Assembly (NCBI GenBank): GCA_043228905.1 | Contig: JBHGNT010000002.1 | Span: 8,060,001 to 8,124,000, forward strand | DNA from: Azolla caroliniana | Taxonomy: Eukaryota; Plantae; Polypodiophyta | DNA length: 64,000 nucleotides | Direction: 5' to 3' | Shown here: one piece after another, positions 612-55,515 of the stretch | Position numbering within the stretch: the first letter of the stretch is position 1 | Layout of the letters: each line of letters starts with the position of its first letter | The notes under the pieces: generated by a model | What the model saw: only the letters and a program-made list of their open reading frames with translations | Told to the model about the DNA's origin: nothing | The model's database searches: none | Translations under genes and position numbers: made by a program

Positions 612-663
<52 letters not shown>

Positions 664-953
664 TGATGCGAAAGATATATGTATTATATGAAGGAAGATA
701 TACAACAGTGGTTAGAAGGCTTAAGACTGGCGTTGAACCGATTTGGTTCGAACTAATGCCTTGCGCCTCCTTTTATAGTGTCTTCAGGAATACTCCTGAA
801 GTTTCTAGAATGTTCCAGAGAAATCTGGAATATACATCAATTTCCTAATAAAACCTAAATGAAAATAATATCCTTCAAATTACAATTCATAACCTAATGG
901 TAAAGTCTCGACCCGTGTAACAAAAGGTTATGGGTTCGAGTCTAGTTATGACA
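479..953 (-). repeat. 3' LTR of chromovirus 1
   Basis: Direct repeat of 5803-6273, adjacent to the polypurine tract. Confidence 0.97.
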
Positions 954-3900
954 CTATCCCCCCTTTAAAACGACGAGTTCCACGAGTCGTTTTGGATTGA
1001 GGACCCGGTTTCTCGGGATATCGTCGATGGAAGTCTTCTAGAAGAGCACGAGCATTGGTCACATTCTCGATCGGTTCCCAAGTACGCTCGCTGGGACTAT
1101 ATCCTAGCCAATCGACTAGATAGTAGAGCTTGTTGCGAACAATCTTGGAATCGAGGATGGCAGCGACCTCATACTCAGGTCCATCTTCGAGCTCGATAGG
1201 AGGTGGTGGTTGTATAGTACGTCCTGGGATAGTGCTCTCGTGATAGGGTTCGAGGAGAGAACTATGAAACACCGGATGTATCCGAAGTTGCGGAGGTAGC
1301 TCGAGACGAAAAGCGACATCATTAATCTTCCCGATAATACGGAAAGGACCTAATCGCCGATAATCCAACTTCTCACATGGGCGAGTAGTCTTGATGTGTC
1401 GTCGTAGCAGCCACACCCGATCTCCAATGTTAAAACTGGATGGAAGTCGATGACGATCTGCGTAGTCCTTGTGTGATTGTTGAGCTTGCTGGAGTTGAGT
1501 AGATAAATCCGCTTGTATCTTGCGTAACCGCTCCAAACGATCCTCCGCGCAAGGATTTGTGGACACTTCTGGGGTTTCAAGGACACACCACCGGGGATGA
1601 TATCCTGTATAAGCGTAGAATGGCGTGACTTTAGTCGATGCGTGGATAGCGTTATTATAGGCAAATTCGGCGAACTGAAGAATATCTGCCCAGTCATTCT
1701 GATGATAGTTGAGAAAGCACCGCAGATACTGCTCCAGTGTCTGATTTGTTCGTTCGGCTTGACCGTCGGTTTGTGGGTGGTAGCCGGAGGAGAGGTTACA
1801 AGTGACCTTCAGCATTTTAAAAAGGTGCTTCCAGAATTTTGACACAAACTGGGGTCCACGATCGCTGATGATATTATCAGGGAGTCCATGATGCCGACAT
1901 ACTTCCCGCATGACAATTTCGGCGGTGTCTTCACTAGATATTTCTTTAGTACATGGTAAGAAATGAGCCATCTTCGTATATCGATCCACCACTGTGAGAA
2001 TCGCACTGAATCCCTTAGAGACTGGAAGATCTGTAATGAAGTCAAGAGCAATGGATTGCCATGGCTTGCTTGGAATTGGTAATGGTTCTAATAAACCATA
2101 TGGATGATGTCTTGGCATTTTCGCTCTGCAGCATGTATCGCAAGTCCGAACAAAATCTTCGACAAATTGTCGCATACGGGGCCACCAGAATGATCGTTGT
2201 ACTAAATCTAATGTTTTAGTACTACCAAAATGTCCTGCTGTATATGTGTCATGGCAGTTTTGTACTACTCGAAGGCGGCAAGAACCATTAGGAACATACA
2301 AAAGTTCTTTAAAGAAGAGTAATCCATCACAGTATTTGAATTGCCGATAATCCGTACCTGGTGATTGTGATTGTGAACATGACGCTCGAGAGGGGTCAAT
2401 TTGTGCTAGTATAGCTTGGGCGAAAGCGTCAGTCTTCAAGTCCTCACGTATAGTATTGGTAATGTCGGAATCCACGGGCATGTCAAAGACCTGTGCTGCT
2501 TGCAGTCGTGCTGGACCCAAGATTACTTGCTTCTGGTTATCGAAAGCTGGCTCACCGGGACGTGGTGTTAGATACGAACGCCGTGATAATGCATCTGCCT
2601 TCCCTTGGTGCTTCCCCGGACGATATGTAATTTTGAAGTCGAAGCGTGTGAGGAAGTGGGCCCACCGAGCTTGACGTCGATTCAGTACACGAGCATCTTG
2701 AAAGTAGGCAAGGTTCTTGTGGTCACTGAATACAGTGACCTGATGAGGAGATCCCTCCAGGAAATGCCTCCATTGCATAAAAGAATCAACTATTGCTAAT
2801 AGCTCTTTATCATGAATTTCGTAGTTGATTTCGGCGGCGTCAAACTTACGGGAGTGGAAAGCCACAGGATGTAGCTTCTCGTCGTTACCTTGTTGTGACA
2901 GAATGCTCCCCAATGCGAAATCCGATGCGTCAGCTTCGATAATGAATGGTTTTTCCGGATCCACATGACCTAAAATTGGAGCTGATGTAAACGCCTTCTT
3001 AAGACTCTCGAAAGCCATGTCCGTCTCTTTAGACCAGATGAATGATTGTCCCTTCCTGGTGAGCTGTGTGAGAGGCAGCACAATTTTTGAGTAATTTTGT
3101 ATGAACTTCCGGTAAAAATTTGCAAAGCCTAGGAAGCATTGCACATCCCGCACCGAACGCGGAGTGTGCCATTCTATCACCGTTTTGACCTTGGCTGGGT
3201 CCATAGATATGCCTTCTGAGGAGATGACATAGCCGAGAAACTCCACTTGGTTGCACCCGAAACTACATTTCTCTAACTTTGCATACAGACCATGTTCTCG
3301 AAGTCGTTTTAGTACTAATAGTACATGAGAATCATGTTCTTCTTGGGTCTTTGAATAAACCAGTAGATCATCCAAATAGATGATCAAAAAATCATCCAAG
3401 AGATCTCGAAATATATCATTCGCCATGTGCTGGAAGACTGCCGGCGCATTAGTGAGTCCGAACGGCATGACCGTATACTCGAAGTGCCCATATCTGGTGC
3501 GAAACGCGGTCTTCCATTCATCTCCTGGTCGGATCCGTACGAGGTTATAGGCTCCTCGTAAGTCGATCTTCGTGAAGAACCTGGCACCGTTGATCCGTTC
3601 TAAAAGACTTGAGATAAGGGGAAGAGCATACCTATTTCTTACTGTGACCTTATTCAAGCCACGGTAATCTACAACGAGTCGAAGCGAGCCATCTTTTTTC
3701 TTGACGAAGAAAATGGGTGCGCCGGCTGGAGATTTCGAATGCCGAATGAAACCGTTCTCCAAATTCTCCTCTATATAGGCTCGAAGGACTTCTAGCTCGG
3801 TTGGTGACAAATTGTAGATCGGCCCCCATGGCGGCTCTTTTCCCGGTTGTAAGTCGATGGCGCAATCGTACGGCCGATGATGAGGAAGTGTGTTGGCTTG

Positions 3901-4542
3901 TACTTTATCGAACACATCAGCATACTGATGATACTTCTCGGGAAGTTGAACGGTGGACTCCTCTTTGGTGGTGCTGGAGGGTTGTACTGATATTGCGAAG
4001 AGAAACATTTCCTCCTTGCGCCCTTCCTCACGCAACTGACGTAGCGAAATGGTTGCAACCTTCTGGGTAGATCCTTGGGTTTGTCGCAACTGGATTTCCC
4101 TTGTCCTCCAATCTATGTCTGGGTTATGTAACTCGAACCATGGTAATCCTAAAACTATGGGATGTTCTGGAATACTAATAATATTAAATGATACTACACA
4201 TGTTAAGTTATCTAGGACAATATTAACGGGTTCCGACTCTTCTATGATATTACCAGAAGCAATGGGACGACCATCAATGACTACTACTGAGGCTGGACAT
4301 GGGAGCTTTCTGAGAGATATCTGATGAGCTCGGGCAAAATTCCTATCCATGAAGCAAGAATTAGCTCCGGAATCTAGAAGGGCTAAGGTATGTACTGGAG
4401 GGGTACTTTTAGTACTAACTGCTACTTGGGCTACGAACACATCACTAACTTGCTTAGAGGGAATGGAACCACTAATGGGCTGCACAGATCTAGGGCTGTC
4501 CAACCAAACGGCTCCTATTTTGGCTGGACTTAGTCGTTTAAC
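946..4542 (-). CDS. pol: Pol polyprotein (PR-RT-RNaseH-integrase-chromodomain), expressed by -1 frameshift from gag
   Basis: Motifs: LLDSGA (protease), YLDD (RT), EADASDFALG (RNase H), HDTYTAGH..CDTC, LDFI/SDRG/QAER (integrase), GPF and EYEVAAILDS..YLVDWLGY..TWEP (chromodomain). The frame is open back to the slippery site at 4536-4542. Confidence 0.95.
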   Translation of the reverse strand, partial: VKRLSPAKIGAVWLDSPRSVQPISGSIPSKQVSDVFVAQVAVSTKSTPPVHTLALLDSGANSCFMDRNFARAHQISLRKLPCPASVVVIDGRPIASGNIIEESEPVNIVLDNLTCVVSFNIISIPEHPIVLGLPWFELHNPDIDWRTREIQLRQTQGSTQKVATISLRQLREEGRKEEMFLFAISVQPSSTTKEESTVQLPEKYHQYADVFDKVQANTLPHHRPYDCAIDLQPGKEPPWGPIYNLSPTELEVLRAYIEENLENGFIRHSKSPAGAPIFFVKKKDGSLRLVVDYRGLNKVTVRNRYALPLISSLLERINGARFFTKIDLRGAYNLVRIRPGDEWKTAFRTRYGHFEYTVMPFGLTNAPAVFQHMANDIFRDLLDDFLIIYLDDLLVYSKTQEEHDSHVLLVLKRLREHGLYAKLEKCSFGCNQVEFLGYVISSEGISMDPAKVKTVIEWHTPRSVRDVQCFLGFANFYRKFIQNYSKIVLPLTQLTRKGQSFIWSKETDMAFESLKKAFTSAPILGHVDPEKPFIIEADASDFALGSILSQQGNDEKLHPVAFHSRKFDAAEINYEIHDKELLAIVDSFMQWRHFLEGSPHQVTVFSDHKNLAYFQDARVLNRRQARWAHFLTRFDFKITYRPGKHQGKADALSRRSYLTPRPGEPAFDNQKQVILGPARLQAAQVFDMPVDSDITNTIREDLKTDAFAQAILAQIDPSRASCSQSQSPGTDYRQFKYCDGLLFFKELLYVPNGSCRLRVVQNCHDTYTAGHFGSTKTLDLVQRSFWWPRMRQFVEDFVRTCDTCCRAKMPRHHPYGLLEPLPIPSKPWQSIALDFITDLPVSKGFSAILTVVDRYTKMAHFLPCTKEISSEDTAEIVMREVCRHHGLPDNIISDRGPQFVSKFWKHLFKMLKVTCNLSSGYHPQTDGQAERTNQTLEQYLRCFLNYHQNDWADILQFAEFAYNNAIHASTKVTPFYAYTGYHPRWCVLETPEVSTNPCAEDRLERLRKIQADLSTQLQQAQQSHKDYADRHRLPSSFNIGDRVWLLRRHIKTTRPCEKLDYRRLGPFRIIGKINDVAFRLELPPQLRIHPVFHSSLLEPYHESTIPGRTIQPPPPIELEDGPEYEVAAILDSKIVRNKLYYLVDWLGYSPSERTWEPIENVTNARALLEDFHRRYPEKPGPQSKTTRGTRRFKGGIVS
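4491..4542 (-). promoter_or_regulatory. -1 ribosomal frameshift signal (G TTA AAC plus stem-loop/pseudoknot)
   Basis: Heptamer at 4542-4536, a 6-nt spacer, then an 11-bp stem GTCCAGCCAAA/TTTGGTTGGAC. Loop TAGG can pair with downstream CCTA. Confidence 0.8.
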
Positions 4543-5699
4543 TCTTCTTCTAATTGGCTAAGGATATCAAATTTGTTTGCGAGATTCGGACTATTAGTAC
4601 TATTAGGACTATTATGACTATGAGGACTATCAGAGATTCCTACTGAAATAGACTCGGGTTTAGTATAGTCAGAACTAACAACGACTTGGTTTACCTGCCT
4701 TCTTGGTCTATGGGGACAGTTTATCGCGATATGCCCTGGTCCACCGCAATAAAGGCATAATCGGTTTGTTCGGCGTCGTTGCTTTTCCTCCTCCGATAGC
4801 GGCCCACGACGACGTGTAGTGTCAATTTCCATTGGAGTTGGAGTACTTACTGGAGGCGCATTATGTGACTCCCTTTGAAAAGGTTTCGCTACCACTGAGG
4901 CATAGGTAGGCTCGGATCTTGCCCTCGGCATCTGAAATTGTCGTTCCGAACGTCGCTCGAAGAGGCGGTTGTCACATCTGACCGCTCGACTGATTGCTTC
5001 TGTTAATGATTTTGGCTCTTCAGGGAAAGTCAAGAGTAAATCCTTGACATCGTTGCGTAGACCATAGCGGAACTGCTCCATCAATGCTTGATCATCCCAG
5101 GGGATATCGGCGGCGAGTAGGCGGAAATCTGCAGCATATGCGGAGGCTGGACGGTCACCTTGGCGTAATCGCCGGATTTTATTGATTGCAGTCCTTATGC
5201 TGTCAGTATCTCCAAAACATGCTTTAAACTCACTTATGAATTCTTCAAAATTATTTAGTACTGGAGATTCCTTTTCTAGTAGCGGAGCGAACCATGCTAA
5301 TGCTGAGCCATTTAACAACGTGCCTACTAAACCCACTCGTGATGCATCGGTGGGATATCGGGACGGATGCATTTGAATAACTAACTGTACCTGGTTAAGA
5401 AACCCTCTAAACTGCGATCGCGTTCCATCGAACTTCGTGGGAAGGCCAATCTTGGGTTCTTTATGAATCCCTTGTGCTCCGTGCCCTTGTTGTTGCATTG
5501 CTACGATGGTTGCTTCGAGTTGTTGCACGCGTAACGCAAGTTCCCCATGCTGTTGTTGCGTTTGCTGCTTTTCTAAGGAAATTTGCTGAAGATCCCCCAA
5601 CAAGCGTTGATTTTCTTGTTCCAAAGCATGAAACTTCTCTTTCAAGCATTGAAATTCCGAGAAAACGGATTGATACTCTTCAGCGCTAACGGTGGCCAT
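4530..5699 (-). CDS. gag: Gag (coiled coil, capsid, CCHC zinc knuckle)
   Basis: 389-aa ORF with PTKFDG, RLRQGDRPASAYAADF, PMEID and CLYCGGPGHIAINC. Confidence 0.95.
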   Translation of the reverse strand: MATVSAEEYQSVFSEFQCLKEKFHALEQENQRLLGDLQQISLEKQQTQQQHGELALRVQQLEATIVAMQQQGHGAQGIHKEPKIGLPTKFDGTRSQFRGFLNQVQLVIQMHPSRYPTDASRVGLVGTLLNGSALAWFAPLLEKESPVLNNFEEFISEFKACFGDTDSIRTAINKIRRLRQGDRPASAYAADFRLLAADIPWDDQALMEQFRYGLRNDVKDLLLTFPEEPKSLTEAISRAVRCDNRLFERRSERQFQMPRARSEPTYASVVAKPFQRESHNAPPVSTPTPMEIDTTRRRGPLSEEEKQRRRTNRLCLYCGGPGHIAINCPHRPRRQVNQVVVSSDYTKPESISVGISDSPHSHNSPNSTNSPNLANKFDILSQLEEELND

Positions 5700-5788
5700 G
5701 GGATGAAGGAAAAGGGGAATAAGAGACTAATAGGAAAGGAGGGAGACAGAAGGAAGAGGGAGAGAAAAGACCAGACAGGCACCGAGGA

Positions 5789-5802
5789 AAATCGGTTCAA
5801 AC
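5789..5802 (-). promoter_or_regulatory. Self-priming PBS (non-tRNA)
   Basis: TTGAACCGATTT is complementary to AAATCGGTTCAA in the LTR (6064-6053), 33 nt downstream of TATAAAA. Confidence 0.8.
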
Positions 5803-5935
5803 TGTCAGGAACTCTATTAAGGCAGAGAAGGAATTAGTACTAAAAGAAGGATTAGTACTATTGTCGGGGAATAGTACTAAGACAGAGAAGGATTAGTACT
5901 ATGAGAGGTGTCGAACTTTGAGAGAAGGAATGAGT

Positions 5936-5983
<48 letters not shown>

Positions 5984-6273
5984 TGATGCGAAAGATATAT
6001 GTATTATATGAAGGAAGATATACAACAGTGGTTAGAAGGCTTAAGACTGGCGTTGAACCGATTTGGTTCGAACTAATGCCTTGCGCCTCCTTTTATAGTG
6101 TCTTCAGGAATACTCCTGAAGTTTCTAGAATGTTCCAGAGAAATCTGGAATATACATCAATTTCCTAATAAAACCTAAATGAAAATAATATCCTTCAAAT
6201 TACAATTCATAACCTAATGGTAAAGTCTCGACCCGTGTAACAAAAGGTTATGGGTTCGAGTCTAGTTATGACA
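5803..6273 (-). repeat. 5' LTR of chromovirus 1
   Basis: Direct repeat of 479-953; TATA box at ~6091-6097 on the minus strand. Confidence 0.97.
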
Positions 6274-11992: not shown

Positions 11993-12770
11993 TGAAGTGA
12001 AAAGCGTGGAATATTGCTCAACCACAACTAAGTCTTGAATCACTTCAATGAGAATGAAACAAAGAAATGGGAAGTAGAGAGTACACAAAGGAAATACACA
12101 GGATGTTTACGTAGAAAACCCTAAGTGGGAAAAACCACGGGAGCCCATGAACTCCAACTATCACTATGGTACAATCAGAGCCTTGGAGGCAATGACCTTG
12201 AGTTTTGTATCTTCACCAACTGGCAGTTACAACAGAGTATCGCTCTGTATCTCACACTCTCTTTCTCTGTCACTCTTAGTACAATTGTTACAACAATATG
12301 ACAACAACACTTAGTGATTGCCCTAAGTCATATTTATACTTATATGAACTTAGGGCTATTTACAAATATAGCCTCAATAGGCTTACTCAAAACATATTTA
12401 CAAATATGTCTTCTCTTCCGGTTCTCACCGGGTTCATCTGATCCGGTTTCTGGATCTCTTGCGGTTCTCACCTGGTACACCCGATCCAGGTTCTGGATCT
12501 CTTGCGGTTCTCACCGGGTCTTCTTCATTCATAATCGGATCCCATCTGGAGGGACCGATTTCCAAACAATCTCCCCCTTCACTCCGACATGGGATGTCTC
12601 GCCAGCCCGATCTGCTTTCAGCACGCGTCCAAGTTGTCGGTTGTTAACACCTTGGTCAACACGTTCGACCCGTTCTCCTCCGTGTGGATCTTCATCAGCA
12701 CGAACTCTCTCGGATCCAGTGATACCTTCGCTGGATATATTTCGTCTAGGAATGGTAGGCCGCGTTGTTG
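11993..12770 (-). mobile_element. Copia 3' LTR (~11993-12568), PPT and RNase H C-terminus
   Basis: Related to the LTR at 21827-22421; encodes KIHTEENGSNVLTK; PPT GAAGGGGGAG. Confidence 0.8.
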
Positions 12771-13624
12771 TGATGTGCGTGCTTGAGAGTGGGAAAAACT
12801 GGCGAAAGGGGGGGTCAAAATGTGCATGTGCACACAAAGGCAATTAATTGTTCATATCCAAAAGAAAAGGGAAAAGAAAGGGTGGAAAGGAGGTATAGAA
12901 GCTCGTGTAAAAAGTAAAAGAGAGGAGAGATAAAAAGTAGAGGGAAGACATGCTATTAATTTGTAGAGATAGAATTATACATTATATAAGAGAGAGTTTA
13001 TGGACTAGTGGATAGTTACATTGACTTTTAGCAAGAGGTGCACGGTTCAAATCCAGTCTTACAATGAAGCGTGATTTAAGGAATTTTATTCCTTTTGAAT
13101 TGAAGACAAAATTGGCGACCCCCCTTCTTTTCTTCCTATAAAAGGAAGGTCGAGGGGGGCTCATTTGGGAGGAGGTTTTGGGAGGAGGAGACTATCACCA
13201 TTTTTCCTTCGGAGCTCTCCATCTTCTTCTCCACCACTTCTCTTCATCTCACACCCCTTCATCACCTCATTGCTACGTGCGTCTTCTTCACGTTGGCACG
13301 CGAAGTGCTCGTTTCGTTGGTTCGAGTTGTTGAGCCCCGTTCGTCATTGCGAGTCCGTGTGCACGCCGTTCGGGTGGTCGTGGTTCCTTGGGGTCGGCAT
13401 TTTTGTGGTGGTCGTGTGTTCGTGCTCCATGTTCGGATTTTCTATTGTCTCTAAGGGCATTTAGTATTTATGTTTTGTTGAGCTTGTGGTTAACTAGAAG
13501 TTGCCACATTGTAATCAAGCCCTATTTTATAAAGGGCCCTCTTGTGTTGGAATTGAACACGTATTTATTTCTTTAGCCAATATCATTCGTGTTTTCTTTC
13601 TTTCTTTCTTTCTTTGTTCTCGTC

Positions 13625-13899
13625 CACTTGTACGTTCGACCGTCTTGTGACGAGGGAGCGTTTCGGGCGTGCCCATGCACCTCTCCTCCTCATAAAGGTG
13701 TACGAGCAATCTTGCGTGTGTTTGTGTCTTCCTTGCACGTTCGGGTGTCTTGTGACGATGGAGCGTTTCGGGCGTGCCCAGGCACCTCTCCTCCTCATAA
13801 AGGCGTACGAGCATTTGTGTGTGTGCTTGTGTCTTCCTTGTACGTTTGGACATCTTCTGACGAGGGAGTGTTTCGGGCGTGCCCATGCACCTCTCCTCC
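13625..13899. repeat. 105-bp tandem repeat, ~2.6 copies
   Basis: GAGYGTTTCGGGCGTGCCCA recurs at ~13656, 13761 and 13866. Confidence 0.9.
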
Positions 13900-14029
13900 T
13901 ATCAGGAGCAGTACTAAGACAGAGAAGTGTTGTTAGGAACAATACTAAGACAGAGAAGGAATTAGTACTAAAAGATGAGGATTAGTACTAAGGGAAGTGT
14001 AGAACTCTCGAGAGAATGAAAGAGTGAGT

Positions 14030-14070
<41 letters not shown>

Positions 14071-17000
14071 GCTAACAAAAGATATATATTATGTTAAGGG
14101 AATATACAATAGTAGCTAGGAGGCTTAAGACTGGCATTGAATTGATTTGGTTCGAAATAATGCCTTGTGCCTCCTTTTATAGTGTTCTTAGGAGTACTCC
14201 TGAAGTTTCTAGAATGTTCTAGAGAAATCTGGAATATACATCAATTTTCTATAGTAAAACTTAATGAAAATAATATCCTTTGTACTACAATATATAGCCT
14301 AATGGTAAAAGCTCGACCCATGGAACATATGTCATGGGTTCAAGTCTTGCCATATCATGACATTATCCCCCCTTTAAAACCAAGAGTGTCACGAGTCGTT
14401 TGGGATTGAGGACCCGGTTTTTCTGGATATTAACGATGGAAAACTTCAAGAAGAGCACGAGCATTGGTCACATTCTCTATCGGTTCCCAAGTATGCTCGC
14501 TGAGACTATATCCTAGCCAATCGACTGAATAGTAGATTTTTTTGCGAATAATCTTGGAATCGAGGATGTCGACAACCTCGTGCTCAGGTCCATCTTCAAG
14601 TTCGATTGGGGGTGGAGGTGGTTTAATACGACCTGGGATGGTGTTGTCCCAATAGGGTTCTAGGAGAGAACTATGGAACACCGGATGTATCTATAGTTGT
14701 AGAGGTAGATCGAGACTAAAAGCGACATCATTAATCTTTTCGATAATACGGAAAGGACCTAATCGCTGATAATCCAACTTCTCACATGGGCGAGTAGTCT
14801 TGATGTGTCGTCGTAGTAGCCACACCTGATCTGCAATGTCAAAACTGGATGGAAGTCGATGACGATCCGTGTAAACCTTGTGTGTTTGTTGAGCTTCCTG
14901 TAGATGAGTAGATAAATCCGCTTGTATCTTACGTAGCCGCTCCAAACGATCCTCTACACAAGGATTTGTAGGTAGCTCAGGGGTTTCAAATACACACCAT
15001 TGGGGGTGACAGCCCGTGTAAGCATAAAATGGTGTCACCTTTGCTTATGACTGGATAGAGTTACTATACGCAAATTCGGCGAAGTGGAGAATATTCACCC
15101 AATCATCTTGATGATAGCTTAAAAAGCACCGAAGATATTGCTCCAGCGTTTTATTTGTTCGTTCTGCTTGGCAGTCTATTTGCGGGTGGTAGCTAGAGGA
15201 GAGGTTACAAGTGACCTTAAGCATTTTAAAGAGGTGCCTCTAGAACTTCGAGACAAACTGGGCTTGACGATCGCTAATGATACTATCGGGAAGGCCATGA
15301 TGCCGACATACTTCACGCATGACAATTTCGGCGGTTTCTTCACTGGAGATTTCCTTAGTACATGGCAGGAAATGGGCCATCTTCATATATCGATCTACTA
15401 CTATTAAGATCGCATCGAATCCCTTAGAGACCGGAAGATCTGTGATGAAATCTAGGGCAATGGATTGCCATGGCTTCCTTGAAATCTAGGGCAATGGATG
15501 ATGCCTTGGCATTTTTGCTCTGCAACATGTATCACAAGTCCGAACAAAATCTTCGACAAATTGTTGCATATGGGGCCACCAGAATGATTGTTGTACTAAA
15601 TCTAGTGTTTTAGTACTACCAAAATGCCCAGATGTATATTTTGGACTACTTGAAGGCGACAAGTACCATTAGGAACATACAAGAGTTTCTTAAAGAATAG
15701 TAATCCATCATGACATTCGAATTGTCGATAGTCAGTACATGGTTGTTGCGACTGTGAACAAGATGCTCGAGAGGGATCAATTTGTGCTAGAATGACTTGA
15801 GAGAAAGCATTTGTCTTGAAGTCCTCACGTATGGTATCGATAACATGGGAATCCAAGGGCAGACCGAAGACCTGCGTTGCTTGCATTCGTGCCGGTCCCA
15901 GGATTACTTGCTTTTGGTTATCGAAAGCTGGCTCGCCGGGACGCGGTGCTAGATACATGTGCCGTGATAATGCATTTGCCTTCCCTCGTTGCTTCCCCGG
16001 ATGATATGTAATTTTGAAGTCGAAATGAGTGAGGAATTGGGCCCACCGAGCTTGACGTTGATTTAACACACGAGCATTCTGAAAGTAGGCAAGGTTTTGG
16101 TGATCACTGAATACGATGACTTGATGAGAAGACCCCTCTAGAAAATGCCTCCATTGCGTAAAAGAGTCCACCATTGCTAATAGCTCCTTATAATGAATTT
16201 CATAGTTGATTTCCGCAGCGTCAAACATGCGTGAATGGAAAGCCACAAGATGTAGCTTTTCATCATTGCCTTTTTGAGACAGAAAGAATATTACCCAAGG
16301 CGAAATCTAACGCGTCGGCTTCAATGATTAATGGTATTTCTGGATCAACATGAGCTAAAATAGGAGCTAATGTAAATTCCTTCTTAAGACTCTCAAAAAC
16401 CATGTTCGTTTCTTTAGACCAAACGAACGGTTGTTCCTTCCAGGTATATTGTGTGAGAGGCAAAACAAGCTTTGAGTAATCCTGTATGAACTTGCGGTAA
16501 AAATTGGCAAAGCCTAAAAAACATTGCACATCTCGCAACGAACACGGAATCTGCCACTCTACCACCGTTTTGACCTTAGAGGGATCCATGGAGATGCCTT
16601 CCAAGGAAATGACATAGCCCAAAAATTCTACCTGGTTGCACCCGAAACTACATTTTTCTAGCTTTGCATAAAGACCATGTTCTCGAAGTCGTTTTAGTAC
16701 TAACAGTACATAAGAATCATGCTTTTCTTGGGACTTCGAATAAACCAGTAGATCATCCAAATAGATGATAAAAAAATTATCCAAGAGATCTCAGAATATT
16801 ACATTTGCCATGTGTTGGAAGACTATTGGCGCATGTGAGGCTGAATGGCATGATTGTATACTCGAAGTGCCCATATCTGGTGAGAAACGCAATCTTCCTT
16901 TCATCTCTTGGTCGGATCTGTATGAGGTTATATGCTCCTCGTAAGTCAATCTTTGTGAAGAACCTTGCACCATTGATCCGTTCTAAAAGACTTGAGATAA

Positions 17001-19557
17001 GGGGAAGTGCATACCTATTCCTAATGGTGACTTTATTCAATCCATGGTAATCTATGACGAGAGGAAGTGATCCATCCTTTTTCTAGACGAAGAAAATGGG
17101 TGCGCCGGCTGGAGATTTCGAATGTTGAATGAAACCATTTGCCAAATTCTCCTCTATATAGGCTCGAAGAACGTCTAGCTCGGTTGGTGACAAATTGTAG
17201 ATCGGTCCCCATGGTGGCTCTTTTCCCGGTTGTAAATCGATGGGGCAATCATATGGTCAATAGTGAGGAAGCGTATTCGCTCGTACTTTATCGAACACAT
17301 CGGCATAACAACAATATTTCTTTGGAAGTTGAATGGTGGACTCCTCTTTATTGATACTAGAGGGGTTTATTGATATTGCGAAGAGAAACATTTATTCCTT
17401 GCATCCTTCCTCACACAACTGATGTAGCGAAATGATTGCAATCTTATGAGTAGATCCTTGGGTTTGTCAACACCATATTTCTCTTGTTCTCAATCTATGG
17501 CTGGGTTATGTAATTCGAACCATGGTAATCCCAAAACAATGGGATGTTCTCGGATACTAATTATATTAAATGATACTACACACGCTAAGTTATCTAGGAC
17601 AATATTAACGGGTTCTGACTCTTCTATAATATTTCTGGAAGCAATAGGACGACCATCAATGACTACTATAGAGGCTTGACATAGGAGTTTTTTTAGGGAT
17701 ATCTGATGAGCATGGGCAAAATTCCTATCCATGAAGCTCCGAAATCTAAGAGTGTTAAGAGATGTACTAGAGGAGTACTTTTACTACTAACCGTTACTTG
17801 AGCTAAGACCACATTGCTAACTTGCTTAGAGGATATGGAACTACTAATGGGTTGCACAGATCTAGGGTTGGCCAACCAAACAGATCCTATTTTGGCTGGA
17901 CTAAATCGTTTAACTCTTCTTCTAGTTGACTAAAGATTTCAAATTTGTTTAAAAGGCTTGGGCTATTAGGATTATCAGACACACCTAGAGAAATAGACTC
18001 AAGTTTAGTACTATTAGCACTAACGGTTATTTGATTTAGCGGCCTTTTCGGCCGATGGGGGTAGTTCACTGCAACATGCCCCGGTTCATCGCAATAAAGA
18101 CATAATCGATTTGACCTGCGTCATTGCTTTTCTTCCTCCGATAGTGGTCCGTGGTGACGTGTGGTGTCGATTTCCATTGGAGTTGGAGTATTTGTTGGAG
18201 ACGTATTGAATGACTCCCTTGGGAAAGGCTTTGCTATGATTGAAGCGTAAGTGGGCTTCGATCTTGTCCGTGGCATTTGGCACTGACGTTCCGAATGTCG
18301 TTCGAAGAGGCGATTATTGCATTGCACCGCATGACCAATTGCTTTTGTCAATGACTTTGGCTCCCCGGGGAAAGTTAAGAGTAAATCTTTAACATCATTA
18401 CGTAGGCCAAAATAAAATTGCTCCATTAGTGCCTGGTCATCCCAAGGAATGTCGGTGACGAGAAGACGGAAATCCGCAGCATAAGCCGAGGCCGGCCACT
18501 CACCTTTGCGCAATCTTTGGATTTTGTTGATTGTTGTTCTAACACTGTCGGTATCTCCAAAACAAGCTTTAAACTCGGTAATAAACTCTTCGAAATTATT
18601 TAACAAGGGAGAGCTTTTTTCTAACAGGAGGGCGAACCATGCCAAAGCCGTGCCACTAAGTAAAGTGCCTACTAGTCCCACTCATGATGCATTGGTGGGA
18701 TATCGAGAAGGATGCATTTGAATGACCAATCGTACCTGATTAAGGAATCCTCTAGATTGCGATCGCGGTCCATCGAATTTCATGGGAAGGCCGATCTTGG
18801 GTTCTTTATGAACCCCATGCATATTGGGTCCTTGTTGTTGCATTGCTACTATGGTTGCTTCGAGTTGTTGCACACGTAACGCTAGTTCCCCGTGTTGTTG
18901 TTGCGTCTGCTGCTTCTCTAAGGAGATTTGTTGAAGCTCCCCCAATAGTCATCGATTTTCTTGTTCCAATGCGAGAAACTTCTCTTTCAAGCATTGCAAC
19001 TCCAAAAAAACGGATTGATATTCTTGAGCGCTAACAGTTGCCATAGTATGAGAGAAAAGAGGAATAAGAGATTAGTATGAAAGGAGGGAGAAGTAAGGAG
19101 ATAAAGGAAGAGAAGGAAGGGGAGAAAATCAATTCAAACTATCAGGAGCAGTACTAAGACAGAGAAGGAATTAGTGCTAAAAGATGAGGATTAGTACTAA
19201 GGGAGGTGTAGAACTCTCGAGAGAATGAAAGAGTGAGTGAGTGAGTGAGAGAGAGAGAATGAGGATAACAAAAGATATATATTATGTTAAGGGAATATAC
19301 AATAGTAGCTAGGAGGCTTAAGACTGGCATTGAACCGATTTGGTTCGAAATAATGCCTTGTTCCTCCTTTTATAGTGCTCTCAGAAGTACTCCTGAAGTT
19401 TCTAGAATGTTCCAGAGAAATCTGGAATATACATCAATTTTCTATAGTAAAACTTAAATGAAAATAATGCTTTTCGTATTACAATACTTAACCTAATGGT
19501 AAGAGATCGACCCATGTAACATAAGGTCATGGGTTCAAGTCTTGCTATATCATGACA
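13900..19557 (-). pseudogene. Decayed chromovirus of the same family as 479-6273 (LTRs 13900-14362 and 19140-19557)
   Basis: Colinear gag/pol/chromodomain fragments with stops and frameshifts; diverged LTRs; the flanks do not form a TSD. Confidence 0.95.
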
Positions 19558-19646
19558 GGTGCTTGTGCTTGTTTGTCTTCCGTTTCATTTCTTGTCTTTC
19601 TCATTTCGTTGGTTAACCAGTTGTGGTCGGTCCCACATTCGCATCA

Positions 19647-31115: not shown

Positions 31116-31169
31116 AGTGGACTGTTGCAGAGTGGGGAAGTGATAGTCCGAGAAGCCCTGATACCCCAC
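31106..31169 (+). promoter_or_regulatory. -1 frameshift signal (G GAT TTT plus H-type pseudoknot)
   Basis: Stem 1 pairs 31119-31128 with 31140-31149. Loop GTGGGG pairs with CCCCAC at 31164-31169. The spacer is 6 nt. Confidence 0.85.
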
Positions 31170-34100: not shown

Positions 34101-34600
34101 AAACCGCGATCGCAACATGGATAGTGCTACCGTGGAAGGAAGAGATGAGCCGGGAAGAACTACTAGCGATCCGGATACGACAACTAGAGGGAAGACTGGC
34201 AGACATAGCCGAAGCAATACGCCGACAACAAGAAGCACGATTAAGGAACAAAAGCCGGTTCGACACAAAGCACCGACTACGACCGAGGAGGATTGAAGAA
34301 GGAGACTGGGTGATCGTCTATGACAGTAGTTTGGACCATCAACATACAACGATGCGAAATTTCGCGAAAAGGTGGTTCGGGCCATACGAGGTTCGGAAAG
34401 TCTTCGACAACGGAACGTACCGACTGTCCGAGTTGGATGGAACAATACTACGAGTGCCTATAGCCGAAAAGCGGGTGAAGATTTTCAAGAAGCGGACCGA
34501 CGACAAACCCTATGTGATCCAAGCCAAGGCGACAACGAGGAGCAATCAGACGAAGACCACGGTGATGCGGGAAGCGAAGAAAGTGAATTACAACTCATAG
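31106..34600 (+). CDS. pol: Pol (RT-RNaseH-integrase, no chromodomain), reached by -1 frameshift; C-terminus probably frameshifted
   Basis: LPQGATNS, FLDD, VDTSPTGIG, HESDWAGH..CEKR (Cys lost), MVD/ADRG/KIER and GPY. The frame is open from 31106. Confidence 0.9.
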   Translation, partial: GFLKWTVAEWGSDSPRSPDTPHRKKTLGAKHVRIGPDGASTYTTVTGGLKKGYRQVEDKLRSASIIKEDEEIVGIVEEVFYGSTLQQLEELAEDKSQGNQVVPVESVEMYEIIAKMEPDTLRKEEAMVSMKYKTVKKNVKPTAGPLPADSEQKRKEVSGDPTLRKSVDIGHAFMDETRKKLRIGGGGFLLQKEEERFREMLEQHGKAFAFTSREIGCVDPRIVEPMVIFTIDHVPWNLKPIPVPRAHIPKVIDLLKEKVVMGILEPSTAPYSNRWFTVPKKNGSLRFIQDLQPVNKVMIRNSGVGPIVDEFAEAFAGRAIYSIGDLYSGYDQFQLAVESRDITTMRTPIGLVRMCTLPQGATNSVAHMMNAMNKVLRDCIPEITMPFLDDSPMKGCAVEEKDETMDDRGCRKFVVDHIHDCEKVLRKLEDVHLTLSKEKSAFGQEEILVVRHLCGPYGRRPSPTKIDAIQAMEEVCESTSEVRRFLGACAFYHIWIPHYAHIADPLYHLLRKGKKFEWKPEHTKAMKKLKKTLWRAEALKKPSYDRPIIVTVDTSPTGIGWVINQADSDGSLYPIRFGAKVLNERQRGYAQVKRELWGVVSAIKSDRDYLIGAEVVIETDCLPILGMMRCCMIPDVAMLRWVAYVKSLNPEVRHISGKENAVADMLSRARFGDDITESDNEEVSKDYFASEHICRVNVIREFREEEYEGESLMIGKMLQEAEDSTNDKGRRDEIRRKKRQVQKFFLENGLIWRAPKRPDGIPVRVVGTKEQRNRIMSEFHESDWAGHRGTWATFVKIKQKYWWKKMYKDVAEFTESCEKRQVYSGVRHRDELHPTFSPTINFKWMVDKVAMLTGIGQKKYLVLARKDLTNQVEGRALQRKTCSAVCQFLLEEVFCRYGCVGQVIADRGELDSDKARGFFAKHGVQLSLTTAYNPEANGKIERGHSPIVKALAKACDGKVKDWPQMLPYALWADRTTHSSITGYMPAELMTGQAPVMPTETAIATWIVLPWKEEMSREELLAIRIRQLEGRLADIAEAIRRQQEARLRNKSRFDTKHRLRPRRIEEGDWVIVYDSSLDHQHTTMRNFAKRWFGPYEVRKVFDNGTYRLSELDGTILRVPIAEKRVKIFKKRTDDKPYVIQAKATTRSNQTKTTVMREAKKVNYNS

Positions 34601-36654
34601 TCGACATAAGGGGAGAATCGGAGGAAGCTTTGGGTGAAGACGGATATGGGGAATCGAGAACTTCGGCACATACCAGAGGATGTGCGGGTTCGGAGGGGGC
34701 GAGTGTCGTAGTGTATTCCACACACTACGTGAAACCATAAAATAATATATCCGATTTTAGATACATATAAATAAATAAATAATATATCAAAAGAATTTAT
34801 CACGTGCATAAGGCAGGATTTGAACCATGCACCTCCACGTAGATAAACCCCAACTTTACCATTGTAATAACTTATCTTTAGTGTTATAAATATAGATTTA
34901 ATACATATAAGACCTTTATTTACACATACCTTTATTAAAAGGTAAAAATCATGTATTCTTTAGAGTGTGAATATTTTATTTACACGTGACATTAAAAGTG
35001 ACTCATGCACATCTAGCGTGCATGAGCCCTATATTTAGGAAATGACAAAGCATCACATGCACATTTAGTGTGCATGGACACTTTAGGTGAAAAAGCATGA
35101 AGCCATGCTTAGCCTCTTCCATCTTTATATAAGGAGGAGAGAAATATGTATAAGGTTGTTGATTAATATAGAAGAATTGATCAATCTAATATATTCGTGG
35201 GATTCACGAATTTTGCCATCTAAATTACTCTTATAATCTAAATATTGTTTTAAAATACACTAAACTCGTGGGATTCACGAGATTGCTATCTTACTTCTCT
35301 TCCTATTATTCATATCTAGCCTTAAGTTGTATTCCTCTTCCTCCTAGTCCAAAACCTCGGCGGTTCCCACCCGACTCACGCAACGATCCAGAGCCGAAAG
35401 GCACGACACCGTAAACCATGGATTTGAGTACGGAGCGTTTGATGGCTCTAGAATCCCCATCGCCACCTTTTCTGTGAGTAGTTCAATGATTTTCAGAATA
35501 TGTGCCCGTGGCACTGGAATTGGCTTCAAGTTCCACGGCACATGACCAATCGTGAAGATCACCATCAGCTCCACTATCTTTGGATCAACACACCCTATCT
35601 CTTTTGGTGTGAATGCAAATGCTTTTCCTATTGCTCCAACATCTCACGAAATCGTTCTTCTTCATTCTTTAAGAGGAACCCGCCTCCACCAATCTGGAGT
35701 TTCTTTCGGGTCTCATTGGTAAATGTATGTCCAATATCCATGGACTTCCGAAGTGCCGGATCTTTCGAGACTTCTTTCATCTTTTGTTCACTATTGCCGG
35801 TTAACGGTCCCACATATGGTTTCACCTTCTTTTCCATGGTCTTATATTTTGTACATACCATTGCTTCTTTTTTGCGGAGCACATCCGGATCCATTTCGCA
35901 ATGATCTTGTACATCTCGACCGATTCCACCAGAAATACTCAGTCTTCATGGTGATTCTCTTCTTCAAGGTCTTCAAGCCTTTACAGTGTGCTTCCGTAGA
36001 ACAATTCTTCAATTACTCCAATGATTTCTTCATCTTCTTTTATGATTGATGCAAACCGTAACTCATCTTGCACCTTTCAGAATGCTTTCTTCATTACTCT
36101 GGTTACGGCCATGTATGTAGATGCCCCATCTGGACTAATTCATACTTGTTTTGCTCCGAGAGTTTTGTTCCTGTGTGGGGTATCAGGGATTCTCGGACTA
36201 TCACTTCCCCACTCCACAACAATCCGCTTTAAAAATCCATTTTTGTTTGGGACAAGAGCTCTTTGTTGTTCCTTTTGGTGATTTGATGGCACAATTAGGA
36301 ATTGGACGGTTTTCCCTCCACTTTGGCTCTGAATTTGTGCAAAAGTTGGACCGCTATGGAGCACCTTTGTCTCCATCCGTAAAGCCGTGATAAAGGGTTT
36401 CCCAAGGATCACAGAATGTGAGACCTCATCTTGCACAAAGAAATTTTGGTCAATCTCCACATCTTGGTCAATCTTCACCATCACATCCGGACAAGCCACA
36501 AATAGATCGTCCGTGGCTTTTGTGGTTGCCCGGATCGTCCATCCATGGATGGTGTTTATAGGCCACTTCCCCTTCTAGTAGAACTTGTTGGAGATCAAAG
36601 TGATCTCTGAACCCGTCATCAATCAATGCTAGTACAGGCTCTTTGATGTTTCTG

Positions 36655-37010: not shown

Positions 37011-37011
37011 T

Positions 37012-40905: not shown

Positions 40906-40924
40906 AAATGGGATGTGTTATAAG

Positions 40925-49625: not shown

Positions 49626-50249
49626 TTACAAATGAGGTAAGTAGGAACACTACAAATGAGGTAAGTAGGAACCCTAATCTAGTAAGTCTAAAAACATATA
49701 TATAGACGTGCCATACGAGATAAATAGTTTTCGGCTCTCCATACACCCTAGTTAAACGTCTATTATTTTTTCAATTGAGCAGTTTTTAGGTTAAACACTA
49801 ATATATAATAGGTAAACACACACTAAAATTTCACTAACCTCCTCCTAAATCAAAATTCCCAACATAACACAATCCTTTGTATGTAGGACTAAGGCAAAAT
49901 CATTACATACCCTCCTTTTTAAATCTTAATCACTACATACATTCCTAATTAAGACTAGATAAAACCCCATATCACCCCCCTTTGTTTTTAATATTATACC
50001 TGTCCCTTTCACCCTTGATTATAACCCCCCCTTTTTTATAATATACCCCTCCCTCTCTAAGTCCCTTCATTATAAACCCTTTCAATCATACTTATATACA
50101 CTCTCCCCTCCCGCTCTCCCTTCACATTAACTCATCACCCTCACCTCCTCATTATCATCCTACACCCCTACCACTACTTCTCTACTCCTCTCTCTACTAT
50201 CTCCCCTTTCTCTCCTTCCACCCTATATATAACACATCTCATATTGTAA

Positions 50250-50304
50250 GTGATCTTTACATTGATGAGCTCATATGGAACAAAACTAGTTTGCACAAGA
50301 TCAC
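50250..50304 (+). ncRNA. Decayed type I hammerhead ribozyme
   Basis: Stem I GTGATCTT/AAGATCAC, core (C>T)TGATGA, stem II GCTC/GA(G>A)C, (G>A)AAAC, palindromic stem III ACTAGT. Confidence 0.65.
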
Positions 50305-50369
50305 CCCCTTTCTCTCTCTTTTTAATAAAAACCTTCTCTCTCTCTCTCTCTCTTATTCATCAGCCGTCG

Positions 50370-51470
50370 TACAAAAGACACATGTACCACTACCAATTTG
50401 TCTTCGTTTTAAAGCCCTAGCCAAAGGTCACCCACCACCATAGCACGTCAAAGAAACACCTTTGCACGAAAAGGAAGATGAGACTTCCATCCTGCATCTC
50501 AAACTCTAGCACACCATTCACATCCACGGATAATGTGCCATGTATCCAAAACCTTGCTCTGTACCCAAACTCTATCCTTAACCAACTTATGATAAACATC
50601 ATTTGTGTTCATTGCAAATAATGATTTCTTGTTATCAAAAAACCAATCTCTCCATGGTTCCACCGCCACCAATTGTGGAATCGATGATGATAAAATAGGC
50701 AATTGTACTATTGTTTGCCAAATCTGACCATATCTAGGAGGTATATGAAATCTACTTCTCACAGTTCGAAAAGTCATCATCTGTCGTTGTGACTCTAAAT
50801 TACCATCCTCCACAGTTACCAAACCTAATTTTGCCATTCTATTAAACTTTGACTTTAAACTGTCTTTTCCATCCTATTGTCATAATCTTGAAGATGTGAT
50901 CACCTCTGCTAGCAAAGAGTTGCAATCTTCTCTACAATCAATTGGTTTCCAATTGAACAACTTCAAACTTTTTTGCCAAGAGACCACTAAATGTTGAACA
51001 ATAGTAGATGTTGAACATCGAAATGATCGAGTGTTATTAATAACATGCCACCATGAAGTTCTAATTTTTGTTTTACCATGTTGTATCCCTACTTTCTCCA
51101 CAAAATAACAAATTATCTGTGCCCATGGTTGAGAACCTGAACACATCTCTTTCAAGAGACTAAACCTTCGAGCAACCAGATGATCTTCCAAATTGAGTAA
51201 ACCGGTTCCTCCTAAATGTTTCAGGGTACATATATGAAGCCATGAAACCCAACTGATACCAATGTTGGACTCTTTCTTCCATAACGTATACCTAAGAGCA
51301 CAAGCCAAGTGATCAAGTGATTTCTTTGTCCAAGGTAACAAAGGCAAAAAATATGAAATCATCGGAATCATAATTGCTTGCACCACTTTGAGACGAGTAG
51401 CAAACGGTCAAGCTTGGGACTTCAAATATATAAATTTATCTGCTATGGTTCTAGAAATCCAAGTTAGGCA
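50370..51470 (-). pseudogene. LINE (L1-like) ORF2 C-terminal fragment
   Basis: ISWVSWLHICTLKHLGGTGLLNL matches the W..IC.PK..GGLG motif. Confidence 0.75.
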
Positions 51471-51507
51471 TCTCAATCTCAATCTCAATCTCTTATTATA
51501 ATTAGCT

Positions 51508-51691
51508 TACCCTAGTGGTAAGTCGATAACACTACAAGCACTGTGTCTTGGGTTCGAAACCTAATTTCCTCACCTCTCTATTATATACTTCATATATATC
51601 TCTATTTCACTAGATGCCATTGTGGAATGTAGGGGTTGAACCCATGACCACTTGGTCTCCATTGGGTAACCTTACCAACTGAGCTACATCC
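51508..51691. promoter_or_regulatory. Two convergent tRNA-like Pol III A/B-box modules
   Basis: Plus strand: TACCCTAGTGG (51508) and GGTTCGAAACC (51551). Minus strand: TAGCTCAGTTGG (51686) and GGTTCAACCCC (51642), with acceptor-like GGATGTA/TACATTCC. Confidence 0.7.
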
Positions 51692-51696
51692 ATCTA

Positions 51697-51698
<2 letters not shown>

Positions 51699-51741
<43 letters not shown>

Positions 51742-52955: not shown

Positions 52956-55515
52956 TGTCATGAAGATTTTCGGCAACAATGTGAAAATTGCGTGGAACAA
53001 GGAAAATCGAGAATGTGCAATGTGCACATGTATGAAAGGAGTGATGGTTACACATATATGTTAGCACGTTAATGTGCATGTGTGATGTGTCTTTAGGTGT
53101 TCATTACACAAGATATAAAAATAAGCCTAGGGCCTAATCGCATACAATGAGATGCAAGTAAGGTTTTGAACCTTACACCTCAACAATAGGAGGCAATTAA
53201 CATACCATTAGGCTAGGTTATTTCCTTTAAAGTTTATTTCTTCATTGTACTTTTCACATAACAGCTCGTACATGAGAGCTTGAATGAGAGACATGGTCAT
53301 CATGCATCACATGCATTTCATGCATTGTATGCATGTCTTACACCCTCCATGCAACATATGCATGGGGGCATCTATATAAGAAGGAAAGGAAGGGAAAGGA
53401 AATCAAGTAATGTATGGAATCAATACCAATAATAATAAATCTTAGTTATCTCATTGGGAATGTGTCTTGTCCCTCAATTTTGAAGTCAATGGTTCAAACT
53501 AGAAATTGGAATTCTCGTCCATATCTATGTATCTACCAATCTATCTTTAATACTTTCTCGCTTGCGCTAGTCCTTCTAGTCCAGAACACTGACGGTTCCA
53601 CTTCATTGTCTTGAACAATCCTTTTGATCCTCCATCACCACTTGCGGACGCACATCGCGACGTTTGGCACATGTGTCACGTGCTTCATGACATCTTTCTG
53701 GTGTGGTAAATATTTTCTCAATATCGCTCTCTCTCTCTCTCTCTCTCTCAATCAACTGACACAAGCATCTTTGACAGCAAGAACGACCCAGTTATAATCC
53801 TAAACGATGGTCTATTCCTTACAAGCACAAGTCACCCAATTCATCCTCCTTGGTCAAAGACCCCGGTGGTCCTGTTCGACCGACCCGCAGGCGCGGATTT
53901 CCGCGACATAAATTTGGTGAACCCGACGTGAAGAACAGCAAGGGAGGATGGTCGGAACTTCGAGTGCTAGAGACTCTAATGATATTCTAGAACAAGGAAT
54001 GGCAAGGATGATGGACCAAATGCTTCAGGAGAGAGACAACGTCACGGGCCTTGATGTTGCCATCGATAGGATCGTGGATACCAACGGATGCTTTGATGGT
54101 AGAGATGTGACACGATACCGTCAAACCTAAGAAACAAAAATGCAGAAAAAGGGTATTCATATGGCAAGACAAGTGACAAGCTTCTCAAGGATTGTAACTT
54201 CATGTCTTTACTCCCGAGTCCTAGAGCTACAAGAGTCCAATCCGGAATGGTCATCTTTCAAACGAAGTTTACTTGAAGAATATGGGTTTGGTGACTCGTC
54301 TCGAATGACGAAGAAAGATTTAATGGACGGGGTGGAGTCTTCTAACAAAGAGTTGAGTGCGAGTGCGACGCTCCACGAGTTCGCGCAAAGATTTGATCGT
54401 TTGCCTACACTTGACAAAACGATTCTTGATTCCAACAAGGTGCTCCTATTTATCAAATTAGTAGGTGAGGAAGATCGAAGAGATCTTGGACTACTCCTAT
54501 TTTTGACAAAACGATTCTTGATTCCAACAAGGTGCTCCTATTTTTGATAAGCGTCGACAATGGGACAACAAGACAAGATCGAGTGTTGCAATTCAGATTG
54601 GCCGACAAGCTTATAACGCAAGACAAGAACCACAAGCCCAAAGACCGAGGGATGTTGAAGTGGTTCAACCCACAGACGAAGCCACAATGGATGAACTTGT
54701 AGACATGCTTTGAGAGATAACAATTTCTCAAATTAGAAAGGAAGAAACTCAAAGTTTTCCGGATCGTCACCTAGACTTTCCCCGTAGGTGTATTTGGTGT
54801 GACTCTTTGGAACACCAGTGGAGAGATTGCTTAGAATTCCAAAATGCCCTTCGACGAGATAACATTTATCTCTCAAACAATCGGATTCACTCCTCAATGA
54901 CACAACGTTGTCGTGAAGATTTTCGTCCATAGGCGGAAACCGGGGTGGAAGGGGCAAGTCGGTGGTGTGCAACATGTGCACATGTATACTAGGATATGGT
55001 GTATAGAAAGAGAGGGGAAAATTTTGTCCCACATTGTAAGGTCCCTCCCTCCTTGGGCTATAAAAGGAAGGGAGGGGTCACTTATGAAGGGGTTGCCTAT
55101 TTTGTGCGAGTAAGGTATACCACTTAGTCTAGGGTTCTCCCTCTTCCCATTTCGTTTTAGGGTTAGGGTTTCGGTTAGGGTTTTCTTCTTGGGTTTCCCT
55201 TTAGGGTTTTCGGATAGTCATTTTGGTGCGGCGACGACGGCCACCATTGTTGTAACCATTCGTTGTTTTAATATAACTTGTTGAGCATCTTGCCTCCACC
55301 GATCCCTCCTTCGATGTCGTGGTCTTATGCTTTCCTCTTCTCCTCTTGAGCTAAGCCTCCATATCATGTCCTATTCTTTCTCCTCCACTCCCTAGTCCAA
55401 GACCCCCGCGGTCCCGCCCCTTCTACACGCACGCGCGCAACAACGCGACAACGTCCTCTCAATACCAACTTCGGCGGAGGAGGTATGAAGAAGTTGATGG
55501 AGGAAATGGAAGAAA
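52956..55515 (+). pseudogene. gag: Gypsy 5' LTR (52956-53908), tRNA-Trp PBS (53915-53932) and gag pseudogene
   Basis: TGTC...CGACA termini; PBS TGGTGAACCCGACGTGAA; FDGRDVTRY, CIWCDSLEH and NFGGGGMKK are homologous to 29704-31115. Confidence 0.85.
54909..55450 (+). mobile_element. Gypsy solo LTR inside gag
   Basis: TGTCG...CGACA termini; TSD ACGT at 54905-54908 and 55451-55454; gag resumes after it. Confidence 0.92.

Follow-up and report, generated by a model that had tools for sequence, protein, structure and literature searches.

Promoters for RNA polymerase III (Pol III) have been described inside long terminal repeats (LTRs) in several kinds of retroelement. Cassandra, a plant terminal-repeat retrotransposon in miniature (TRIM), carries one that has been conserved for a long time, although it is of the 5S type 1 and drives the transcript of the non-autonomous element itself (PMC10886601). 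Helenus/TRIMp3 elements contain tRNA-derived sequence in both LTRs, are non-coding, measure 311-1263 bp and are thought to be transcribed by Pol III; a single plant family of Helenus (Selaginella) is described, and autonomous elements are argued to need Pol II (PMC10886601). The same report mentions a likeness to tRNA for "not a few LTRs" of Repbase, of which it analyzes those of less than 1000 bp, and the raw resemblance between LTRs and tRNA is in this sense already hinted at in print (PMC10886601). In foamy viruses, A- and B-boxes are found in the LTR of an autonomous, Pol II-transcribed retroelement (PMC3993851). Here we analyze a stretch of 64,000 nt from the fern Azolla caroliniana (assembly GCA_043228905.1, contig JBHGNT010000002.1, positions 8,060,001 to 8,124,000), hereafter the window, in which a tRNA-type Pol III promoter module, composed of an A-box and a B-box, recurs near the outer end of the LTRs of Gypsy retrotransposons that retain their own genes.

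Like Helenus, the chromoviruses E1 and E2 and the Gypsy element E3 of the window bear tRNA-derived sequence in both LTRs, but E1 (5.8 kb) and E3 (6.5 kb) have open gag and pol genes in an intact gag-pol arrangement and keep a Pol II TATA box. Moreover, the Helenus promoter is placed to transcribe the element, whereas the module reported here is antisense and directed outward in E1, E2, E3, the E3-like E4 and nine loci fetched from other contigs, and apparently sense in E5, an unclassified solo LTR. The foamy virus is an animal retrovirus with a conserved hairpin product and terminator (PMC3993851), neither of which is conserved across families in the plant Gypsy retrotransposons analyzed here. 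With yeast tRNA genes (tDNAs) and ETC sites the modules would share binding sites for Pol III factors, which in yeast act independently of any product as barriers, insulators, roadblocks and phasers of nucleosomes (PMC2040200, PMC4228148); those are host chromosomal sites proven experimentally, whereas the LTR modules are mobile, reside in a plant and are predicted from sequence. E1 also resembles the described Tcn1 chromoviruses, chromodomain-bearing Gypsy elements with fungal-like relatives, no tRNA primer-binding site (PBS) and predicted self-priming (PMC6317226, PMC2864245), the plant members of which are reported there only from mosses and club mosses (PMC6317226). The term "polymerase III" does not occur in the main texts of these two papers, and a full-text literature search, thin on subscription papers and judged mostly by title and abstract opening, listed no paper that describes, for autonomous LTR elements of plants, a conserved tRNA promoter facing outward. 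LTRs with a Pol III promoter have precedents in Cassandra, Helenus and foamy viruses; an outward-facing one in autonomous plant elements appears to be new, and we propose a function for it below. Genomic sites consisting of a B-box alone also exist, and the LTR modules differ from them by keeping the A-box.

All ten A-box/B-box pairs listed by the first-pass annotation are found at their coordinates and on their strands. E1 harbors one in its 3' LTR (890..943, plus strand), where the A-box, an AGGT motif and the B-box lie antisense to the element and the B-box ends 10 nt from the LTR 5' end, and another in its 5' LTR (6210..6263, plus strand), facing outward to the flanking DNA. In E2 the 3' LTR module (14295..14347, plus strand) has a spacing of 42 nt, and the 5' LTR carries the second (19489..19542, plus strand). 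The modules of E3 occupy 29033..29086 (minus strand, antisense and at a distance of about 110 nt from the 5' end of the LTR) and 34816..34869 (minus strand) in its 5' and 3' LTRs, respectively, that of E4 is antisense at 53162..53215 (minus strand), and that of E5 lies at 13001..13054 (plus strand) and is followed after some 80 nt by a TATA box at 13137. The remaining two are found outside LTRs, at 51508..51561 (plus strand) and at 51686/51642 (minus strand).

A scan allowing up to two mismatches in the A-box, one in the B-box and a spacing of 30-70 nt yields nine matches in the window, all of them spaced by 42-44 nt, against a mean of 0.05 (maximum 1) at that spacing and of 1.02 (maximum 4) at any spacing in 100 local dinucleotide shuffles of the window, so that the expected enrichment over shuffled sequence is borne out; the tenth pair (51686, minus strand) has a 12-nt A-box and falls outside the scan rule. 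These matches are not independent, since four come from the LTR copies of the sibling chromoviruses E1 and E2 and two from both LTRs of one element, but the five distinct sources to which the nine reduce are still far above chance. Taken together, the ten pairs derive from about five sources, namely one group of Tcn1-type chromoviruses, a distant Gypsy lineage with two LTR families, the unclassified LTR and what is likely a unit of the short interspersed element (SINE) type. The module is present in 8 of the 22 LTR-like stretches scanned in the window, several of which have approximate boundaries, and is absent among them from the Copia-type LTRs and from four LTRs of the E3/E4 type.

The A-box precedes the B-box on the same strand, as in a type-2 Pol III promoter, and the A-boxes of the window deviate from the consensus at zero to two positions, with G10 often lost. 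The linkers between the boxes (31-33 bp) are within the tRNA range, and 32 bp is by far the commonest such linker in yeast tRNA genes (PMC11724288). The near-fixed spacing of 43 nt claimed at first is thus real, but it is the sum of an 11-nt A-box and a 32-bp tRNA linker and therefore marks tRNA ancestry, the default distance between A- and B-boxes, instead of a separate design. From position -50 to -21 upstream, the AT fraction is 0.73-0.93 in six Tcn1 families and 0.70-0.83 in E3 to E5 (nine of nine LTR modules measured, 0.70-0.93), compared with 0.50-0.60 in the two modules beside a long interspersed element (LINE) and a window mean of 0.56. ARAGORN calls no tRNA gene in the window and, with a lowered threshold and introns allowed, gives only implausible calls with long introns among the matches listed; Rfam has no match in the window at E<=1. 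We also considered and rejected the possibility that the modules are tRNA genes as such, the acceptor and anticodon stems being paired in 37% and 36% of cells, with no excess over shuffles.

The main evidence for constraint comes from a comparison of one LTR per family in seven chromovirus families, with the near duplicates E2, L011, L017, L025 and L027 left out. Mean pairwise identity reaches 0.73 in the B-box, 0.90 in tRNA positions 44-48 and 0.81 in the A-box core, compared with 0.34 in the anticodon-arm spacer and 0.35 in both flanks, and whole U3 pairs align at 0.43-0.56; the anticipated higher conservation of boxes over spacer is therefore observed. Positions A44, G45, G46, T47, G53, T54, T55 and A58 are invariant in the seven families and C56 is kept in six of them, and a plain LTR alignment likewise clusters its invariant columns at the module site. 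The spacing remains constant at 43-44 nt, and the distance of the B core from the LTR end (15-44 nt) and that to the TATA box (175-276 nt) vary. Because they are shared by both LTRs of an element and across seven families, the modules are family-level features of the LTRs, as had been proposed; recent SINE insertion into single LTR copies was rejected on the same grounds, and no tail or target site duplication (TSD) was seen.

In yeast, TFIIIC contacts DNA upstream of the B-box, where changes at +44 to +47 alter transcription, and the A-box is described as minor for TFIIIC binding but required for TFIIIB loading (PMC11724288). The conserved columns of the module coincide with TFIIIC-contacted and tRNA-invariant positions, on one strand and at tRNA spacing (PMC11724288, PMC11811891). 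Given that the conserved part is what TFIIIC reads, the constraint is most likely on the DNA and not on an RNA. We thus regard the module as a real, selected feature, with a high probability that selection acts on a DNA site for the Pol III factors TFIIIC and TFIIIB, and the modules likely recruit the host Pol III machinery.

The distribution of the module was analyzed in 93 related loci chosen by pol homology and not by motif, of which 41 have an LTR start followed by 90 nt or more, 5 are too short and 47 have no start that could be found (the calls for L003 and L004 are doubtful). In the focal clade around E1 (support 1.00; reverse transcriptase (RT) 78-90% identical to that of E1) the module is present, antisense and within 50 nt of the LTR 5' end, in all eight loci that have U3 on the contig, and the other LTR starts give 1 weak match, without AGGT, in 33. 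On a neighboring branch, L023 (RT 69%) has the module by profile and alignment but fails the automated rule. Such patchy presence across branches implies repeated gain or repeated loss of the module. In viral contigs, two motif scans gave no match. The first-pass view of "unrelated" retroelements holds to the extent that at least two very distant LTR lineages are involved, the pol products of E3 and E1 being 23% identical, but the 705-bp LTR of E3 and the Trp-primed LTR of E4 belong to a single lineage: the E4 gag matches that of E3 at 36-42%, which places E4 in the E3 lineage, so that the two are not unrelated.

Several other explanations have to be weighed against selection on a Pol III factor site. 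The module might be a working Pol III gene, the antisense RNA of which would run over the LTR end (and, from the 3' LTR, over the polypurine tract (PPT)) and tune silencing or reverse transcription. Initiation is what the retained A-box and the AT-rich upstream sequence predict; foamy virus LTRs produce Pol III miRNAs that require A- and B-boxes (PMC3993851), a long hairpin (z from -2.3 to -4.7) is predicted in E1, E2 and L011, and runs of four T residues (T4) occur within 11-40 nt, inside the LTR, in L016, L017, L018, L019, E3, E4 and E5. The hairpin, however, is restricted to one subfamily, and in E1 and L011 the other strand scores about equally; a T4 terminator lies inside the LTR in only three of the seven Tcn1 families (besides E3, E4 and E5), and the transcribed sequence outside the boxes is not conserved. 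The cloverleaf is not kept either (47.6% paired, against 47.2% in shuffles), and RNAalifold finds no consensus pair across families. A conserved short Pol III RNA, as first suggested, is consequently not borne out, lacking both a conserved fold and a shared terminator, and we consider an RNA product an unlikely reason for the persistence of the module. Two related candidates were discarded: a generally conserved long hairpin, a by-eye impression that proved confined to E1, E2 and L011, and a foamy-type pre-miRNA cassette, as the hairpin occurs only in these three, which have no T4 inside the LTR.

A role in integration, with TFIIIC on the cDNA end tethering the element to Pol III-rich places or the LTR serving as a landing pad for tRNA-targeting elements, would agree with the location of the B-box within 50 nt of the U3 end in the Tcn1 clade, with a LINE-like 5' end some 40 nt upstream of the A-box at 51508 and with L012, a fragment of the module-bearing clade that adjoins a degenerate tandem array of tRNA-like units. 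Yet L012 is one truncated case, none of the eight LTR modules of the window has an insertion just upstream, no tRNA gene is called in the window and the modules of E3 and E4 lie 110-210 nt from the LTR end, which makes this role rather improbable. Slightly less credit still can be given to the idea that common tRNA-like SINE heads fell into ancestral LTRs and were copied along as neutral leftovers. Similar heads do occur outside LTRs (51467-51693, 63204-63258 and two in the L068 flanks), distribution among relatives is patchy, and SINE insertion has been proposed as the origin of Helenus (PMC10886601); decay, on the other hand, would not leave boxes at 0.73-0.90 and a spacer at 0.34 with fixed spacing over seven families, no SINE body, tail or TSD is recognizable in the LTR modules, and the idea accounts for origin and not for persistence. 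Finally, the AGGT at positions 44-47, more conserved than the average of the textbook B-box, and the partly degenerate A-box might point to co-option by a factor foreign to Pol III, be it a plant transcription factor on the Pol II promoter or an RNA signal of the genomic strand near the PPT; as the conserved columns fall, all on one strand and with the spacing of a tRNA, on the TFIIIC-contacted and tRNA-invariant positions (PMC11724288, PMC11811891), and no fold is conserved on either strand, this is the least probable of the four.

In the reading that we prefer, the outer U3 end of two distant Gypsy lineages carries the core of a tRNA-type promoter, made up of A-box, AGGT, B-box and AT-rich upstream sequence. 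This core would have been captured from tRNA genes or SINE heads, likely at least twice, and selection would likely maintain it for the binding of TFIIIC and TFIIIB to the DNA. TFIIIC would bind the B-box and positions 44-47. Given its place in U3, upstream of the TATA box on the other strand, the module would direct Pol III away from the element, and TFIIIB, loaded through the A-box and AT-rich upstream sequence that have been retained, would come to lie between the module and the TATA box of the Pol II promoter. The U3 position and antisense orientation claimed at the outset do hold for E1 to E4, but E5 appears to carry the module in sense, an orientation read from only its TATA box and a CT-rich leader. 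Outward transcription by Pol III may occur and yield RNAs without a fixed form. The complex, once assembled, would serve as a boundary or roadblock that separates the flanking chromatin from the Pol II promoter of the element, and would protect this promoter in the 5' LTR against silencing that spreads, or transcription that reads in, from outside. Yeast tDNAs are reported to block heterochromatin regardless of orientation, with a need for both TFIIIC and Pol III (PMC2040200), and to stop Pol II read-through (PMC4228148). By this analogy an insulator role seems plausible, and we give the boundary function in particular, and with it the complete proposal of an LTR-edge Pol III core kept by autonomous Gypsy elements as a TFIIIC/TFIIIB site and acting as boundary or roadblock, about even chances.

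A number of observations weigh against this proposal. Yeast tDNAs can also repress neighboring Pol II promoters (PMC4228148), and in the 3' LTR the module would face the genomic transcript of the element itself and obstruct it, a cost that the proposal does not explain. The focal clade is a single phylogenetic event, so that its count of eight in eight shows inheritance and not function, and the module is absent from other Tcn1 branches (L020, L021, L026, L031, L035, L068 and L073) and from the E3/E4-type LTRs of the window at 37216, 40404, 59525 and 54909; with close relatives devoid of it, the module must be dispensable. The A-boxes are imperfect (G10 in two of seven families; a CAA close to the start in one module out of 11), the B-box has damaged bases (C56T in L016, G53T in L017), and the AT-rich upstream criterion is weakened by the fact that U3 is AT-rich in general. 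A point in favor of constraint comes from E3-LTR contigs, in which none of the 11 B-box positions but 10 of the 32 in the spacer have listed variants (one-sided Fisher p=0.034), with 4 of 11 for the A-box, but this count was obtained from the best 40 of 43 rows and with the B-box 25-35 nt from a masked edge.

E1 (479..6273, minus strand) is an intact Tcn1-type chromovirus with LTRs at 479-953 and 5803-6273 that show 0 mismatches and a single 4-nt repeat indel, and it is flanked by the TSD GTTAT. The datasets listed as its best matches include leaf and plant metagenomes and no RNA dataset, which carries no information on expression. Its gag (4530-5726) and its pol with chromodomain (946-4557), both on the minus strand, follow the gag-pol order with the chromodomain after the integrase, as in Tcn1 chromoviruses; E1 would be assigned to this group by these features and their description in PMC6317226, the RT tree including no named reference sequences. 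A Pol II TATA box (TATAAAA) is predicted at 771..777 (minus strand), about 110 nt inward of the A-box, and is aligned in nine of the ten LTR rows, those that reach the site. Near the start of R, a predicted self-priming site (732..744, minus strand) is complementary to the PBS at 5788-5802. This complementarity between PBS and R start co-varies between families (window, L011, L013, L016, L018, L019), both sites changing together through compensating changes in L013 and in L016/L018/L019, which would provide good comparative support for self-priming, as expected of Tcn1 elements. A hairpin formed at this site, GAACC...GGTTC, has some likeness to a B-box. It accounts for another A/B-like pair (702/746) that spans the start site of E1, which was dismissed because it is not kept in L016-type LTRs. 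E2 (13901..19557, minus strand), a degenerate sibling with 82% DNA identity to E1, is inserted in E5, the solo LTR TGTG...CACA (12769..19637, plus strand in its inferred orientation) that it splits. Among other relatives, L020 and L021 contain an extra open frame between pol and PPT, and A/B-like pairs within the pol of L012 and L013 are coding sequence and were treated as chance.

E3 (28921..35408, plus strand) is an intact non-chromovirus Gypsy element with 705-bp LTRs that differ at 1 site and the TSD CCGT, and its named relatives are from Riccia and Adiantum. The E4 LTR (52956..53908, plus strand) is followed at 53915 by a tRNA-type PBS, presumably of the Trp type; none was seen in E3. In the E4 module the hairpins of the anticodon arm and the T-arm are partly formed, and a T5 run follows 40 nt downstream. 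A second A/B-like pair, in sense and spaced by 44 nt, is found downstream of the E4 TATA box (53447-53501, plus strand) and may be a chance match or a decayed copy. Members of the E3/E4 lineage produce 4-bp target duplications, CCGT and ACGT (28917-28920, 35409-35412, 54905-54908 and 55451-55454), and nest into their own relatives. No further copies of the E4 or E5 LTRs were found among the window and fetched loci, nor any LTR-bearing E3 relatives in viral contigs, and the three fragments related to E3 in prokaryote genome contigs have no well-scoring module. Two E3 relatives with 54-56% identity, L094 and L095, come from contigs filed as bacterial genomes and are probably contamination.

The two modules outside LTRs had been placed upstream of a LINE. 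The pairs are real, but they are better read as parts of a single-copy SINE-like unit than of a LINE promoter. The unit (51467..51693, minus strand; about 230 nt) has a tRNA-like head with its A-box at 51686 and its B-box at 51642, in which part of the tRNA fold persists, a body and a (GAGATT)3 tail, abuts a 5'-truncated fragment resembling LINE ORF2 and contains the other module (51508..51561) on the strand opposite to its head. Its identification as a SINE-type unit with LINE neighbors is likely, the labels being taken from layout and known motifs in one copy; there is no second copy among the window and fetched loci, and Pfam gives no match for the putative LINE fragments. Two such fragments, 50300-51466 (minus strand) and 51740-52955 (plus strand), lie head to head around the unit, and the left one could be a head-LINE template-switch chimera. 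Elsewhere, a weaker A/B-like unit with GAGGTC and shorter spacing is found outside any LTR at 63204-63258 (plus strand), about 1 kb downstream of a Met-type PBS. In L068, a contig of another plant, two tRNA-like heads (2700-2755 and 19036-19083, minus strand) lie in AT-rich non-LTR DNA, which shows that such heads are common raw material. The degenerate array in L012 (1-8500) comprises at least 11 tRNA-like units with an A-B spacing of about 48 nt, directly preceding a truncated element of the module-bearing clade. We take its units to be Tyr-like, with a short intron.

Pol III promoter capture would be extended by these modules from non-coding TRIMs to autonomous elements, and in the genomes of seed-free plants these LTRs may turn up as peaks of Pol III factors or as tRNA pseudogenes. 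We put forward more tentatively, at less than even odds, the broader notion that a Pol III pre-initiation complex has repeatedly been recruited by autonomous plant retrotransposons to the outer edge of their LTRs as a portable chromatin boundary, a solution reached convergently in at least two Gypsy lineages. If true, each insertion would bring its own anti-silencing shield, thousands of TFIIIC sites would be scattered through the genome, and Pol II-transcribed elements would be making use of Pol III independently of its product. A conserved TFIIIC site at the LTR edge would offer, through one base (C56 of the B-box), a handle on self-insulation and on TFIIIC boundary activity in plants, and the question bears on how young retrotransposon copies stay active in the silenced, repeat-packed chromatin of plants.

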